Below, piece after piece: positions 1,732 through 62,660 of a stretch of DNA of 64,000 nt. The stretch's first letter is position 1; the number at the start of each line of letters is the position of its first letter. Under the pieces are notes generated by a model. It was given only the letters and a program-made list of their open reading frames with translations, was not told where the DNA came from and made no database searches. Origin of the DNA: Octopus sinensis (lineage: Eukaryota); the NCBI RefSeq assembly GCF_006345805.1, contig NC_042997.1:204414001-204478000 (forward strand), written 5' to 3'. Made by a program: the position numbers and the translations under genes.

Positions 1732-2379
1732 ATACAAACCTTCTCATACAAGTGTACATTATATGATTTCGCATGTGTGCATGTTATATAATTTTTACAT
1801 GTGCACACACATATCACATAATTTTACTTGCACACATATATGATTTTACCTATATACATATATTTCATGTTGCATATATACATATATTGTATGATTATAA
1901 ATACATGCATATATTACATGATTTTACATACCTATATTACATGATTTCTGAACATGCTCATACATTTCATAATTTTATGTATACATATATTACATGATTT
2001 TATCTACATTCATACATTACATGATTTTCTTCGAGTGCGTGTACTGTAAGAAATTATATTCATGTCTACTGTGCTTAGGAAAATAGACTTGAGATGTAGC
2101 AGTGTAGCTGAATTAATAAACATTAAATAGACAATGGAAGAAGTATTAGTATTACGAATAACATTTGAGATCTCAATTTGCATAACTGCTCTACTCTGAT
2201 AACAACTACCAGAACTATCATTACGAGACAGATTTAAATTTGTATTTGTAGATCAGTTATCATTTAGAGATTAGTGTCATCATAAGACTGTTGTTTAATT
2301 AAGCCCTAATAAATGACAAAAGAACAGTAGGTTCATATTTCTTAAAGGACTTGGAATGTAATGACATCTATATATATAT

Positions 2380-2875
2380 ATTTATAAATGAGGGTGAAAA
2401 ATTGATATTAATTTAATAATACCATTAATTTAACACCGAGTGGCTTAGCACAAAAAAAACTATGGAGAAAATACAAATTTATACATAAATTATTAGAGAG
2501 TTAACCACTATGTGGATAGCTCTTGTGCTAAAAATAGCTCCGATAGTATAGCCACAGAAAAAGATGTTTCCAATTAGAAATAACATACATCTAACGGAAG
2601 GAAAGTGAAATATAACGAATAAATAGATTGACCCTGAACAAATTGTTTCATTACTAATGTAATATGTAATTTTACTTACATACACATCTATAAATCATCA
2701 GCAGAGGTTTGTCTTAAATACAATTAATTAGACCGACACGAGCGTCAAAAACACATGCGGTTTAACGAATTGCATTTTTAGTTATGCCTCAATTGGAAAC
2801 ATCTTTTTCTGTGGCTATACTATCGGGGCTATTTTTAGCACTAGAGTTATCCACATAGTGGTTAACTCTCTAATA

Positions 2876-2880
<5 letters not shown>
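2380..2880. mobile_element. (TA)n-embedded element with 89-bp inverted arms enclosing a hammerhead
   Basis: Arms 2487-2575 and 2791-2879 are near-perfect reverse complements; TA arrays on both sides. Confidence 0.8.
2632..2707 (-). ncRNA. Type I hammerhead ribozyme motif, intact core, extended stem II
   Basis: Minus strand: CTCTG-CTGATGA-[tttatagatgtg TATGTAA gtaaaa TTACATA ttacattagtaat]-GAAAC-AATTT-GTT-CAGGG. Stem I CTCTG/CAGGG (one G.U), near-palindromic stem III, GUU triplet. Confidence 0.7.
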
Positions 2881-2921
<41 letters not shown>

Positions 2922-2922
<1 letters not shown>

Positions 2923-3220
2923 GAGGCGCAATGGCCTAGTGGTTAGGGCAGCGGACTTGTGGTTTCGATTCCCAGACCGGGTGTTGTGAGTGTTTATTGA
3001 GCGAAAACACCTAAAAGCTCCACGAAGCTCCGGCAGGGGTGGGGGGGGGTGATCCCTGCTGTACTCTTTCACCACTCTTTCTCCCACTCTTTCTTCTGTT
3101 GGCCTGCTCACTTAGCCAGCGGGGTGGCGTCATTTGAAGGCTAAAACAATGCAAAGCTCATTGTGACCAGCGATGTGTAGCAACACCTGATGGTCTGGTC
3201 GGTCACGGTGATCACGGTGA
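2922..3220 (+). mobile_element. tRNA-derived SINE family B (tail type 1) inserted in (TA)n
   Basis: Head ggaggcgcaatggcctagtggttagggcagcggac...gtttcgattccc; closely matches 39248-39548. Confidence 0.9.
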
Positions 3221-44352: not shown

Positions 44353-45963
44353 CTATGAGGAATTATCGCTTTCTGCACTAAAAAAGTTTTCTTCAACACT
44401 GCTGCTGTGCTTAAGAACCGGACTGCTCCCTACCGATGAAATTACACAAGCTGATGTGTAGGTTGTCGGTTCGTCTCCCACCTCCATAGCTCTTGGTCGT
44501 TCTCTTCGGCGTCGATGGTGTCGGCGATTGATGACAGGAGAAGATTGTGGCTCGGGGGGTGTTTGTGGCTCACCATTATTTTCCGGAGATCCTTCCTTGG
44601 AGTTGCGTTGAAGCTGATAGGTTAAACTCTGCAGACTACGGGATCGAGTATTAACAGCCTTCTCTTCAGTCTCCACTTTGTCAGTACTGATGGACTTATC
44701 ATCGGCTCCAGGTGGGGCTGGAGTTTCCTCAACATCCGTCTGTATTGCCGCTTCCCTCAGCTTATGGCTCTTGTCTTCTTTTTCAGTTTGCGTCGAGGTA
44801 GAAGAGGATGGCGGCGCTCTAGTGGGGGACTTTTCTCTCCAGTAATCAGCCGCTGATAAAGACCGACGAGGTTGCATCGATACTTTTGGTTTCGGCCGAT
44901 CCGGATCTTCAATTGTTCCCAGCTCTATACTTCCCGGAGTAAATAAAATTTGCTTGCACACTGTATTAGGGAGTTCCTTAAGCTCAATTTCCGACAGACA
45001 TGAAAGTTTTTCTTGCACTTGATTTTTAAGCAGGAGCAGTTCAATGTCTTTCCCTTTCAGAACTAACTCTGTCAAGTTACATGTATTTCTCAGACTTTCC
45101 AAATTTGATTGCATTTCCACTTTTCTGTTAATATATTCCATCACCTCAGATCCATACAATGAATGCAATTCTTCAACCAAGTTTTTCTCTTTAGATCGAA
45201 TTTCAGCAATAAAAGCGATAGCTACATCATGAATTTTTTGTTCAGCATCTTTGATCAAAGTGTCACATCTGCCAAGCGTATCAATTTGAGTATCATATAC
45301 ATTAATACGATCCTTGCAAGATTCCAAGAGACGTTGTATACTATCTTTATATTTAACGACAGCATCCGAGAAATTTGTAATTTCATGGTCCTTATGTTCG
45401 TTAAATGTACAGAGGACACAAATACAAGCTTGGCATGGCTCACAGTAGAATCTAACCACTTCTTCCTTGTGTTCCTTGCATTCAATATCTTTTTCAATTT
45501 CCACATCGAAAAGACTGTGAGACTTGGTGACTTTCGTTTCTTTATGCAATTCCACGCATGGTTTGCAGAGAAGCTTATTACAGTCTAAACATTTTGATGA
45601 TGCTTCTCTGTGTTTACGATTTACCATCTTACAGATATCACAGAATGGAAACTTGGATGGTCTTTGTCGTGCCACCACCTCTCCTAAACTTGAGACCAGA
45701 AAGTTATCTGGAAGTTTTTTCACACCACCGATTGGAAGATTGGTTCGTTTCCGACATAATGGACATGTGAATTCACGATAGTCACTATATTTTTTATACG
45801 TGCATTCTGACATAACATGGTTCTCAATACACTGTTCACAAAATGTATGCAAGCAGTCTAAACATTTTGGGTTTTTAAAGCCCTCCAGACAGATCTTACA
45901 TGTAAGAAATTCATCATGAATTTCCTGGGCTAACTTATTTCCTGTGGTGGTTGTGGCAGCCAT
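44353..45963 (-). CDS. TRIM/RBCC E3 ubiquitin ligase (TRIM56/TRIM2/3/45-like N-terminus, no NHL or filamin domain seen); 536 aa from first ATG, in a single exon
   Basis: Open frame to TAG at 44353. C3HC4 RING (CKIC...CLHTFCEQC...CPLC), B-box1 (CDIC...CLDCNKLLCKPC..H...H), B-box2 (CKEH...YCEPCQACICVLC...H.DH), coiled-coil region, then Ser/Pro/Arg-rich tail. The frame is open back to the acceptor, so an upstream exon could extend the N-terminus. Confidence 0.95.
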   Translation of the reverse strand: MAATTTTGNKLAQEIHDEFLTCKICLEGFKNPKCLDCLHTFCEQCIENHVMSECTYKKYSDYREFTCPLCRKRTNLPIGGVKKLPDNFLVSSLGEVVARQRPSKFPFCDICKMVNRKHREASSKCLDCNKLLCKPCVELHKETKVTKSHSLFDVEIEKDIECKEHKEEVVRFYCEPCQACICVLCTFNEHKDHEITNFSDAVVKYKDSIQRLLESCKDRINVYDTQIDTLGRCDTLIKDAEQKIHDVAIAFIAEIRSKEKNLVEELHSLYGSEVMEYINRKVEMQSNLESLRNTCNLTELVLKGKDIELLLLKNQVQEKLSCLSEIELKELPNTVCKQILFTPGSIELGTIEDPDRPKPKVSMQPRRSLSAADYWREKSPTRAPPSSSTSTQTEKEDKSHKLREAAIQTDVEETPAPPGADDKSISTDKVETEEKAVNTRSRSLQSLTYQLQRNSKEGSPENNGEPQTPPEPQSSPVINRRHHRRRRERPRAMEVGDEPTTYTSACVISSVGSSPVLKHSSSVEENFFSAESDNSS

Positions 45964-46027
45964 GATATCATTGATGTCAATCGCAGTTGTGTGATATCTA
46001 CTTCCAACTTCAAGACGTCGGCGGTTC

Positions 46028-46055
46028 CTGGAAAGAGATAAAAAAAAATACAAAG
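46028..46055 (-). promoter_or_regulatory. 3' splice acceptor and polypyrimidine tract of the TRIM exon
   Basis: Minus strand reads a T-run then atctctttccAG|GAACCGC; the exon begins at 46027. The ORF-track start at 46053 lies in the intron. Confidence 0.85.
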
Positions 46056-46944
46056 AATTAAAATAAGGGCAACTGCAATGAAAATGGATATTAAAGAATA
46101 AAAAGAAACATAATATGTTCCATTAAATCAATATGCAAAACAAATGAATAATAAATGAAATAGAAAATATGACAGTCATTGTTAGTTAGGGTCAAAAGAA
46201 GTCTAACCATGACCACCCCACTTTTTAGTTTATTTCAGACTGCACTATCTAACATGTTCTCTTTTTCATGATTTCAGAGAGATTTGGCTACTATTCCTAG
46301 AAGACTGAGAGACCACATAATGGCTACCTTGAGAGATCACATAGAAGTCGTTAAAAGGAATGTTGTTAATATTGCTGTTTAAACAAGGTGGCGAACTGGC
46401 AGAAATATTAGCACATTGGGCAAAATGCTTAGCGGTTGTTTGTCAGTCTTTACGTTGTGAGTTCAAATTCCACTGAGGTCGACTTTGCTTTTCATCATTT
46501 TAGGGTCGATAAATTAAGTACCAGTTGCATACTGGGGTCAATCTAATCGACTAGCCCGCTCCCCCAAAATTTCGGGTCTTGTGCCTACAGCAGAAAAGAA
46601 TATTGTTGTTTAAACCCAGGACTGACATGGTCGAGCAGTTCCATGATTAAAAGACATTCTGGCTGTGAATATCTGATAGTTTTCTGAACATAGCATACCC
46701 TGGACTGCGTTACTCAGTGTGTCCTTTTAAGATGTAATTTGAGGGAGATTTGGTTGCTCTTTTCAGTAGGATGTGCAGCCATTAGAAACTCCTTTGCTGG
46801 ACTAAAAGAAATGTTATAAAACAAAGGGAGGAAAGTTTGGTGGCTCACAAATAATTGAAAATGGAGACACAAGTGTCCAGTTGATTTATTATTATTGTTG
46901 TTGTTGTTGTTGTTGATATTATTATTATTATTATTATTATTAAG

Positions 46945-58854: not shown

Positions 58855-60984
58855 ACTATCAGTGTGGTCATTCTTGCTTTCACACACAATCTACCCAATA
58901 TTGTGTGCTACCAATGACAAATTATTGACTTATATCAATATGGATAATTCCCCCACTAAACGATCAGCTGGCATAATGGTGCTGTAGCCTGGCCCTCCAT
59001 TGGTTACAATGACAAGGGTTCCAGTTGATCCGATCAATGGAACAGCCTGCACATGAAATTAATGTGCAACTGGCTGAGCACTCCACAGGCATGAGTTCTC
59101 TTAATATAGTTCTCAAGGAGACACAGTGTGGCACAGAGTGTGACAAGGCTGGCCCTTTGTATTACGTGTGCAACTCATTTTTGCCCATTGAAGGGACTGG
59201 AGCAATGAGAAATAAAGTGTCTTGCTCAAGGACACAACATGCCACTGGGAATTGAACTCATGACCTTATGACAGTGAGCCAAATCTCCGGCCACAAAGCT
59301 AAGCATCTTCACTTGATATCATAGAATAAGAAACATTATAACATTCACCAAACACAACATTTAATATGAGTCATACAAACTGTTTCAAACCTTTTTCTAT
59401 CATTAATATAACACATACTGGAAGTAAAAGTGGATGTTTGTGGTAATTAATGTTAAGAACCTCTTCCTGAGAAAATATTTAAGAACTGAAGAAAAAAGAT
59501 GTAAAATATTTTGCTTTAGGTGAATAGGTTAAAACAGAGGGCTATTTATATTCCACTCTTTCAATTCTCTCCGCATTCTTTACAATGTAGCTGTGTTTAT
59601 TTCAGGTGCAGAATGGGTAGACAGACAGTCCTTTTGCCTTTTTCAGAATAGCAGACTGCTAATGTCATTTGACGTTCCTTGCCTGTTGCTACTACTCTGC
59701 TAGGTATTAGTTGCAGTTATTCCTCAGTAATAACGTTAGGTGAACATCTTGAAGAAATGTTAATGCTACATAAAATACGTTATTTCAGTTAACTTTGTGG
59801 CTGACATGAGTTGATATAATAACTTCTTCGTTTTTTTATTTTTATTTTTCCAGATTCCAAGATTCAACAGAATAATTATTTGACTGTTCATAACGGATTG
59901 TTCTTTCTTGAAATTTGAGAAAAGAATTTAAGAAAATCATAACTGGCTCCTGCAGGAAATAATTTAAATATATTTTATCCAAACCTACCAGGAAAATGTG
60001 AAGAGAAAGTTTGTTAATTAAATGTGGTGGCATTTTGAAAATCTGTTAATTACACTAGCAGTCAGGAGAGAAAACTTATGTCTGTAGCTACTGCTAGGAA
60101 GAATGTGCCAGAACATCCATTCACCTACCAATATTTTGATTAATAAATCAATTTGCCTCAAGGAAAAGCATTTCTAAACATTATTGAGTTACAAAACTAG
60201 AAAACACCAATAGCTTATCTCCATTTTTCTTTTCTTTTTTCTTTCTCTTTTTAGTTTTCAGGAGTATATATAAGTTTTAAAGATGCTGGGTATTAAAGAT
60301 GGTGGGTATATATAAGTTTTAAAGATGGTGGGTATGTCTGGGTATTCCATGGAGACTTTTAATCATTGAGTTTAATTTCTTAGCACAAAACATATTTCTT
60401 CAAAGGATACCAGATAAACCACATATATCTGGGTACATCTTAATAAGCAACAACTCCCTTCTTGCATGGGCCATGATACCACAAAACCTGTTTTGAAAAT
60501 GACTTAACAGATCCTATCAGGTGGTACTATTAAGTTAGACATGCCCAGGGGCCATTCTTTGGCTGAAACATATCTAAGTTATTTATCAGTTATTATTAAA
60601 GCTAGTTTTATATATTTCCATGTTAATTGTCATTGAAATGGTGTTCAAACATCAGAGAATAGATCCAGTAAAGACAATCTGAAAAATTCTGAAACTGGAA
60701 TACTCAATGTAACATCCATTTTAGTAAGTTCAATGTACATTGATTACCGATTGAATATGCAAGATAGAAGAGGCATGAATGTGTGGTTTAGAAGTTTGCT
60801 TTATAAACATGTAATTCCAACTTCAATCCCATCAGTGCTAAGTTAAGTAAAATTTAGTAGATGGAAACTGTGTGGACACCTGCTGCCTGGATAGTTTCTG
60901 CTCAGTAATTAATTATAATTAACCATAAATGAGAATAATGAGAATCATTTATAATAATGTAGTTGTCTGTTGTGGAAGCTGGAG

Positions 60985-62660
60985 GAACAATTTTGAAGTC
61001 TGTTTTAAGAAACTCCAAGAACAGGAATTAAAACAAAAAAATCTCAGTAGATTATTGAGATTTGTGTTACAAAGTAATACAATGAAATTTGGACAAAGAT
61101 TGTACCACCAGACGAGGGGTTGTGCCATGGGTACTTCCATGGCAATTAATTTCGCTAATGTCTTCATGACGAAATTTGAGACACAACTACTGAAGACATT
61201 CAAATCCCTTCATGGTCATGAACCAATACTTTGGTTACGGTTCATTGATGATGTCTTGTCTGGGATGAATCACAAGATAGTTTAATTGACTTCTTGCATT
61301 TCTGTGACAGTTATGCTAAAAATTAAGGCTTTAAGTCCAACATAATATTTACGTCTAGTTTTTCAAAAACTAGTGTTGAATTTTTAGAACACAAAAGTTA
61401 AGTTTTTTGGAGGCAGAATGGTAACAGAGTTATTTTGCAACCCACGTCATCCCACATTTATCTCCACCACCGCTCCAATTATCCACATCATCCTATTCGA
61501 TCAAATCCGAAATCCCAATTTTTGAGGATAAAACGGATTTGTACTGACATAGGGGATTACTGGAAACATGCAAATGCTTTTGTACATCATTATGTTAAAC
61601 ACAGTTACAGTGAATCATGATTAAAGGAAATAGCAAATAACATAGCTAAGATTAGCAAAGAAAGTTAAACCTTCATGCATAATTTTAGCAAACACAATAC
61701 AATTGATGACAGAATTCCTTTAGTGATTAACTGGCACCAAAATTTGGCTGGTATGTCAAAAGTGTTGCATGAAAGTTACCAGCATGTAGCGAAAAAATAT
61801 CCACATTTCAAATTTGACATTTCCTCGGCTGCCTATTGTAGCCTTTAGACGGAATAAGAATATAAGAGAATTATTGACCTCTATTTCTGACTCCAAGAAA
61901 ATGAACATTGGAGTATCTGCATGCTGTACCTTAAAAAACAGCCGCAAGAGAAGTAAGCCCTGTTCATTGCGCAACAATATGGGTCAAGTCAGGAATCATA
62001 ACAGAAATGTTATGATTTATACAGAAGGTGGAACATGTAGAGATTCAAATTTGGTGTACATGGCAGAATGCATGAAACACAACTTAATTTATGTTGGCTG
62101 CACAACAGAACAATTAAACAAAAGGTTTAATGGGCTCAGATTCGACGTCAGGCACAATAAGAGTAGTTCGACAGAATTTGCTGAACATTTTACTTCAAAC
62201 GGCTGCAATTATGAAGAAGACTTGAAAGTGCATATTCTCTGAAAATATTCTGAATCTGCTTCACTTTCACTTCTCAAAATGCATGAGGAGAAATATGTTT
62301 GTGGGTTATTAACATCACACTCTGGAGGAGTGAATGAAATGACAGGCGAATATCAAATTTATACAAAACAGTTTGATTAAATAGTCATTTTTCTTTTCTT
62401 TTCTCTTTTTTTCTGTCTTTTTCTTTTTGCCTGTTATAAAACTGAAACTTAAAAACTGATGATGTCATCCCATCAACATGTGGAAGCTGGTTTCTCTTGT
62501 TTATACTTTAAATTTCTATAATTTTGAATTTTTATCACTTCTTATTTTGAACTTGACAAAGACAGATTTACTGACAAAATATTGTTCAACCAATAAAATA
62601 TCTATTACAATCGAATTGCACTCTTTGTCTTGACTGTTTACCTTTGTGAAGAGTTACATC
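60985..62660 (+). mobile_element. Penelope-like retroelement (Neptune-type), 5'-truncated and frameshifted: RT plus GIY-YIG endonuclease
   Basis: RT motifs QTRGCAMGTSMAINFANVFM..FE and WLRFIDDV; thumb region YLHHRSNYP...KSQFLRIKRIC; PIVAFRRNKNIRELL; Cys cluster followed by GIY-YIG TCRDSNLVYMAEC...YVGCTTEQLNKRFNG; AATAAA at 62592. Confidence 0.9.
62547..62589 (+). ncRNA. Degenerate minimal hammerhead-like motif at the Penelope 3' end
   Basis: TTGAAC-TTGACAAA-GACAG attta CTGAC-AAAATATT-GTTCAA: 6-bp stem I and palindromic AATATT, just before AATAAA. A second relic (CTGATGA...GAAGCTGGTT) lies at 62456-62492. Confidence 0.5.

Follow-up and report, generated by a model that had tools for sequence, protein, structure and literature searches.

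A truncated, partly inverted insertion of a putative Penelope-mobilised hammerhead retrozyme family in Octopus sinensis

Known retrozymes and the octopus locus

Metazoan non-LTR retrozymes form a published class (Cervera and de la Pena 2020, PMC7229834), and their derivation from the terminal repeats of Penelope elements has been treated by Li, Clavereau and Pollet 2026 (bioRxiv 10.64898/2026.07.22.740005). The available parts of these sources describe non-coding tandem monomers, each with one type I hammerhead and a GC content below 50% (PMC7229834), which co-occur with Penelope-like elements (PMC7229834; bioRxiv 10.64898/2026.07.22.740005). In the Xenopus study (bioRxiv 10.64898/2026.07.22.740005), eight of nine predicted retrozymes gave no cleavage in vitro. 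The mussel is the mollusc named in the available parts of PMC7229834, and the available text of the Xenopus preprint names none. For Penelope-like elements, Craig et al. 2021 (PMC8557442) described a layout in which copies are truncated at the 5' end, form partial tandems and bear both a truncated copy in inverse orientation and a tail on one side only; elements of the Hydra clade combine a (TA)n target, inverted 5'-truncated copies and a one-sided tail with hammerheads of palindromic stem III (PMC8557442).

The octopus family described here is like both the metazoan retrozymes and the Hydra-clade elements in the features just listed. It is also like the minimal hammerheads of Penelope-like elements (Cervera and de la Pena 2014, PMC4209133), which have a helix I of 4-5 bp and a palindromic loop 3, occur as opposite-strand motif pairs 100-700 bp apart and were proposed to act as dimers, and like non-autonomous Chlamys elements such as MRC1 (PMC8557442), which are non-coding and head-to-tail and have a 3' end similar to that of the autonomous partner; the Chlamys elements are green algal, and most are described as lacking canonical hammerheads. 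In contrast to the published retrozymes, as the available parts of PMC7229834 and bioRxiv 10.64898/2026.07.22.740005 present them, the octopus family has a stem II of about 45 nt and explicit Penelope-type insertion marks, and its monomers measure 487-539 nt against 150-450 bp and 51-972 bp in the two sources, respectively. Unlike the Hydra clade as described in PMC8557442, it has no ORF, and its tail is about 90-100 nt long against 30-40 bp.

The locus lies in a 64-kb stretch of O. sinensis DNA (the window), in which a sequence-only reading had described a hammerhead ribozyme caged between inverted arms. With a probability of about 0.8, judged from sequence, the window carries a truncated, partly inverted insertion of a tandem non-coding family with a covarying hammerhead fold, likely a non-LTR retrozyme mobilised by Hydra-clade Penelope-like elements. 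Its features are listed below; stem I, both core segments, stem III and the triplet are read from the sequence, and the hammerhead as a whole from the sequence and from covariation across the family.

2369..2380, no strand: (TA)n flank on the tail side
2380..2792, minus strand: main copy, a 5'-truncated monomer of the putative retrozyme, positions 87-497 of 497 nt
2380..2470, minus strand: tail of about 90 nt between the two fixed 3' ends, in the main copy only
2487..2575, minus strand: main-copy segment complementary to the inverted arm, with the first-end motif at 2511-2489
2632..2706, minus strand: type I hammerhead
2706-2702 and 2636-2632, minus strand: stem I, CUCUG with CAGGG, 5 bp
2701-2695, minus strand: core CUGAUGA
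2650..2694, minus strand: 45-nt stem II, with U.U and three covarying pairs, an internal loop and a distal AU-rich hairpin
2673..2679, minus strand: GUAAGUA, apex of stem II
2649-2645, minus strand: core GAAAC (GAAA at 2649-2646)
2646-2645 and 2639-2638, minus strand: stem III, with the palindromic loop AAUUU
2639-2637, minus strand: GUU triplet, predicted cut 3' of 2637
2793..2879, plus strand: second copy in inverted orientation, 5'-truncated; it starts at monomer position 306, stops at the first fixed end and has no hammerhead
2855-2877, plus strand: end motif in the inverted copy, common to a Hydra-clade element by sequence comparison
2881..2919, no strand: (TA)n flank on the inverted-arm side
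44353-46122, minus strand: RING and B-box, TRIM-like stop-to-stop frame of 589 aa

The TRIM-like frame is on the same strand as the element, as had been remarked, and lies 42 kb away; no link was found that would give the shared orientation a meaning. A SINE-like repeat (2920-3220) adjoins the element and has three further copies in the window at 78-87%. At 60929-62242 on the plus strand there is a broken remnant of a Penelope-like reverse transcriptase and GIY-YIG endonuclease, with a weak Neptune-type protein match (28%, E 6e-5), and about 200 nt past this remnant a CTGATGA occurs without a complete hammerhead.

Structure and distribution of the repeat family

The main copy is 96% identical to a reference monomer of 497 nt, a natural tandem unit (L005:1501-1997), and appears to be a mosaic of family haplotypes. 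It is joined head-to-head to the inverted piece. The inverted arms of 89 bp and the (TA)n flanks are present as previously described; the arms (2487-2575 and 2791-2879) consist of 87 nt with three mismatches plus a common 2-nt junction, and the 506-nt stretch folds into a long hairpin (z -18.6). Since the inverted piece starts at monomer position 306, the arms are an internal segment duplicated at this insertion. Two of the three sites at which the arm differs from the main copy separate family haplotypes, and the arm (2793-2879) has an exact match in six retrieved loci, the main segment in none. These haplotype differences hint at two templates, gene conversion being possible as well.

The genome searched comprises 2.72 Gb in 13,516 contigs. 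Among the best 40 of 1,425 candidates at least 144 matches were obtained, most of them spanning only positions 89-501 of the query. The monomers are arranged in head-to-tail tandems with one hammerhead each; a monomer end precedes the 5' start of the full monomer in 78 of 82 cases, and the runs reach six pieces. Among 54 distinct insertions, 33 contain an inverted piece, 32 a tandem junction and 7 neither. The length of the arm varies at every insertion, and the monomer itself is without arms. The longest ORF starting with Met is 21-32 aa and the GC content 31-34%; six-frame translation of the element gave no ORF and no endonuclease remnant, and the ORF for a reverse transcriptase with C-terminal GIY-YIG (DKT, CxCx5C) is absent from the element itself. 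The proposal of a non-autonomous, retrozyme-like element is supported, and so is a type I hammerhead with palindromic stem III that is akin to those of Penelope-like elements.

The non-tandem 3' ends fall at two positions in 94 of 105 cases, 57 at 493-497 and 37 at 395-416, with 11 elsewhere. A TA-rich repeat follows 76 of these 94 ends (51 of the 57 and 25 of the 37, respectively). The 5' ends are variable, and the insertions are dispersed across many contigs. Thus (TA)n target, 5' truncation, inverted copy and one-sided tail, the marks of Penelope-type insertion, were all found. The predicted cut site has just one of the 115 5' ends less than 6 nt away (2.6 expected), 60 of the others being upstream and 54 downstream of it, in a set of loci chosen for long matches and thus biased toward long copies. 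Templates therefore span the cut site, with which circles and uncleaved linear multimers both fit.

The circular monomer is predicted to fold about 4-5 sd below 25 shuffles; for monomer A the predicted circular fold is -114.5 kcal/mol against -89.4 +/- 6.3 kcal/mol for 25 shuffles. In assembled contigs from six presumed-RNA runs and one run of unknown kind, the monomers were partly covered without any splice joint; such contigs cannot reveal RNA ends, strand or circles, and none is on record as RNA.

The hammerhead fold and its long stem II

The hammerhead descriptor identified exactly one site in the 64-kb window, against a mean of 0.06 in 100 first-order Markov simulations. The CUGANGA...GAAA core and a NUH triplet, which define a type I hammerhead, are present, and the core, the GUU, the 5-bp stem I, the near-palindromic stem III and the stem II of about 45 nt were all located where the sequence-only reading had placed them. 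Its term 'minimal' does not fit, because the 4-bp base of stem II covaries and is followed by an internal loop and then by a distal hairpin. The minimal motifs of PMC4209133 have a helix II of 7-8 bp with conserved G10.1-C11.1 and lie in the terminal repeat of a coding element, whereas here the stem II is branched, its base is mostly closed by U.U, and the motif sits in tandem monomers. Nor is this U.U atypical, as had been supposed: it occupies the stem II base in 14 of the 26 Hydra rows of File S2 of Craig et al. 2021 (PMC8557442), which have U at the cut site in 10 of 26, and it is also found at the helix II base of axolotl HHR_Amex2, which cleaves better as a dimer (PMC7229834). The same File S2 gives a loop 2 of 3-10 nt for the Hydra rows, in contrast to the long stem II here, and long loops for two Selaginella PLE-X rows; the listed Hydra-1_oBim hammerhead differs in sequence from that of the octopus family (PMC8557442).

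The isolated 91-nt hammerhead stretch is of nearly ordinary stability (z -1.08). By ViennaRNA, the hammerhead fold of the window copy is 3.3 kcal/mol above the minimum with the arms included or removed, so the arms should be no block to it in the model; the earlier idea of a caged ribozyme thus fails, the monomer having no arms and the second arm being part of an inverted 5'-truncated copy. The corresponding cost is 0.4-1.3 kcal/mol in one B copy, one C copy and one G-C/GUC copy, by which comparison the window copy looks weaker. Non-optimal features for a hammerhead are the U.U at the stem II base, the U at the cut site and, in subfamily B, the U4C core. With its single, weak-looking predicted ribozyme and without the first 86 nt of the monomer, the window copy is probably a dead end.

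Rfam hammerhead models gave no match at E<=10 in the window stretch and none at E<=0.5 in five loci, one of which holds a short-stem Hydra motif; as even this motif is missed, the models are insensitive to this lineage. The genome-wide search that had been proposed was made with custom patterns: a long-spacer pattern (43-48 nt), which excludes the 5-nt loop-3 variant of the window copy itself, had 1,231 exact matches against 3 for the reversed control, and a short-spacer pattern (4-32 nt) had 2,083 against 10.

The sequence comparison of subfamilies indicates that the hammerhead is real and that its fold is under selection. Subfamily B, 85% identical, has A-U in place of G-C in stem I and C-G in place of U-A in stem II, and in subfamily C (69% identical) and other subfamilies more pairs are altered. 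A set of 143 distinct rows, among them mis-registered and chance ones, has standard pairing at positions 1-5 of stem I in 131, 126, 128, 138 and 124 cases and at positions 2-4 of stem II in 134, 130 and 128; pair 1 of stem II, the G10.1-C11.1 site, is U.U in 99 rows, as in the window copy, and G-C in 27. A 34-row alignment was hand-picked to represent the subfamilies; family D, mis-registered rows, near-duplicates and the odd rows L174, L176 and L184 were excluded from it. In these 34 rows two-sided change was detected in all five pairs of stem I and all four base pairs of stem II, 93 such changes in total, with 93.1% of the cells paired against 84.0% after shuffling and 29-45% after sliding, and both stems, I and II, emerged from RNAalifold without prompting. 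The same rows did not exceed shuffles in the two measures based on a tally of pairs or of types (62 and 112 of 500). Stem III is A-U and C-G in 34 of 34 rows; being invariant and required by the search patterns, it lends no covariation support, and the invariance of the core in this alignment is likewise built in by the patterns.

Copies selected by BLAST give an unbiased test of core conservation. The expectation that copies keep the core above background is clearly borne out in subfamily A, where 4 of 531 core cells differ against 663 of 14,123 elsewhere, and barely in the younger subfamily B (8 of 792 against 340 of 21,198); the core is intact in 52 of 59 A copies and 83 of 88 B copies. Subfamily B (L077, L080 and others) is the most homogeneous, with about 97% identity and long tandems. 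It carries a CCGAAGA core (U4C) with GUA, and one hammerhead sequence is common to 57 of 147 copies.

Within stem II, the distal pairs vary almost only on one side, and 99 of 112 distinct hammerhead rows whose stem II measures 43-50 nt retain the apex GURAGU. Pairing accounts partly for this conservation. Canonical hammerheads have a contact between loop 1 and loop 2, and by analogy this contact could be made by the internal loop, which lies 4 bp away from the core. The apex GURAGUA reads like a 5' splice site. We consider it rather improbable that the distal stem II is a functional add-on, in which GURAGUA would bind U1 snRNP or the Hydra reverse transcriptase and thereby gate hammerhead cleavage, with a driver that could be named and with copying that switches between RNA molecules.

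A further, short hammerhead family, with a stem III of the ACUCAGAGU type, was detected at L128:2662-2718, L146:2676-2733 and L162:7764-7909, where it sits in its own small inverted repeats.

Candidate drivers and rival readings

Coding Hydra-clade elements of the same genome agree with the monomer in their palindromic stem III, in targeting (TA)n and in having two fixed 3' ends, and the families D and E and the monomer all share GAAACAAUUGUH and TA targets. The short-spacer hammerhead matches mostly belong to family E, which has a hammerhead at both ends, two fixed ends and, in L285, a frame of 859 aa; the order in L288-L290 is hammerhead, reverse transcriptase-endonuclease ORF, a 3' region of about 3 kb and terminal motif. 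Pfam gave no match in the 859-aa ORF. The protein contains DKT, CxCx5C and IKWK in place of RWK of Hydra, and by these motifs and by visual likeness to published Hydra alignments family E appears to be Hydra-type. The end motif before the first fixed end of the monomer is the same as that of family E in 20 of 23 nt, which 2 of 500 shuffles reach. The gapped alignment of the 3' part of the monomers with the end of family E was reached by 82, 20 and 34 of 300 shuffles and is thus not significant, so that the link between monomer and family E rests on short motifs. Of the loci of Hydra-type family D, which also contains CxCx5C, 18 of 20 have a hammerhead with a 58-nt stem II downstream of the endonuclease, indicating that long stems occur in coding elements too; a coding element with the exact 45-nt-stem-II hammerhead was not found. 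Taken together, these sequence comparisons make Hydra-clade Penelope-like elements the likely drivers.

Some related repeats were observed in addition. The 3' region of family E (L285-L290) is internally repetitive and TG/AC-rich, the protein has an Asn-rich linker, and the element is much longer than the described Hydra elements of under 3 kb. Behind a third Hydra-type endonuclease (L245:597-1540) comes a hammerhead-like motif that combines GUC with the same stem III. A repeat at L160:6513-7481 and L167:2313-2663 has a Hydra-like endonuclease that ends an Asn/Ser-rich frame of 323 aa, with no reverse transcriptase seen nearby.

It is likely, as far as the models go, that the family cuts and circularises its own RNA. 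In the proposed mechanism, tandem arrays would be transcribed and their hammerheads would cut, probably aided by the pairing of two palindromic stem III halves, after which the monomers would be ligated into circles. The Hydra reverse transcriptase/GIY-YIG protein would nick (TA)n and start priming from the motif at the fixed end, which lies 150-255 nt 3' of the cut site. Copying round the circle would give the tandems, and a second priming or a template switch the inverted arm.

The strongest competitor, possible though doubtful, keeps the same element and the Penelope-type insertion and takes an uncleaved linear multimer as template, with a ribozyme that trims read-through or cuts rarely and with no circles. 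Copies that span the cut site agree with it, as does the same stem III in the coding Hydra elements, for which circularisation is not needed; the head-to-tail runs of at most six pieces and the stable circular folds, however, match the circular retrozymes of coral, mussel and axolotl (PMC7229834).

A driver from another Penelope-like clade is unlikely. The candidate is a young Neptune-type family (L160:3350-5782, an 811-aa frame with a second ORF ahead), of which at least 150 matches, those scored, have 96-100% protein identity; its many near-identical copies with 811-aa open frames, its inverted pairs and its ends at TA-rich sequence would suit the role. This candidate is disfavoured, because its similarity to the monomers is not above chance, its end-motif score of 16 is at the shuffle level and a hammerhead scan of its 3' end found none, whereas stem III is common to the Hydra families and the end motif to family E.

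We regard as very unlikely a satellite-like relic of a Penelope terminal repeat, multiplied by DNA-level duplication and with a dead ribozyme. Tandem arrays do exist, some loci (L006-L009, L016) are segmental duplicates, and a model of local amplification is discussed in bioRxiv 10.64898/2026.07.22.740005, but dispersed insertions with variable 5' ends, fixed 3' ends and inversions argue against it, as do compensatory changes between subfamilies down to 69% identity. Hardly any weight can be given to a MITE-like DNA transposon whose terminal inverted repeats would be the 89-bp arms, or to a designed hairpin that cages or regulates the ribozyme: the long hairpin inside TA repeats would suggest it, but it is largely refuted by arms that correspond to an internal segment of the monomer, vary in length from one insertion to the next and are absent in 21 of 54, one arm here lying 90 nt inside the end of the element.

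The literature search found no paper on a cephalopod retrozyme or on a long-stem-II Hydra hammerhead, in line with the suggestion that the family may be undescribed; repeat databases may hold it under another name. Compared with the published cases, the apparent novelty lies in the stem II of about 45 nt with its internal loop and conserved GURAGUA apex, which the Rfam models miss. This suggests that long-stem-II hammerheads are under-counted in molluscan genomes. The family provides many natural long-stem-II variants, with U.U or G-C closure and with GUU, GUA or GUC. The mobilisation of animal retrozymes by Penelope-like elements has so far been argued from co-occurrence and terminal-repeat similarity; here the putative retrozyme insertions themselves bear the Penelope signature, and the same genome contains Hydra-clade elements with long open frames as candidate drivers, so that the pair would be testable by a retrotransposition assay.
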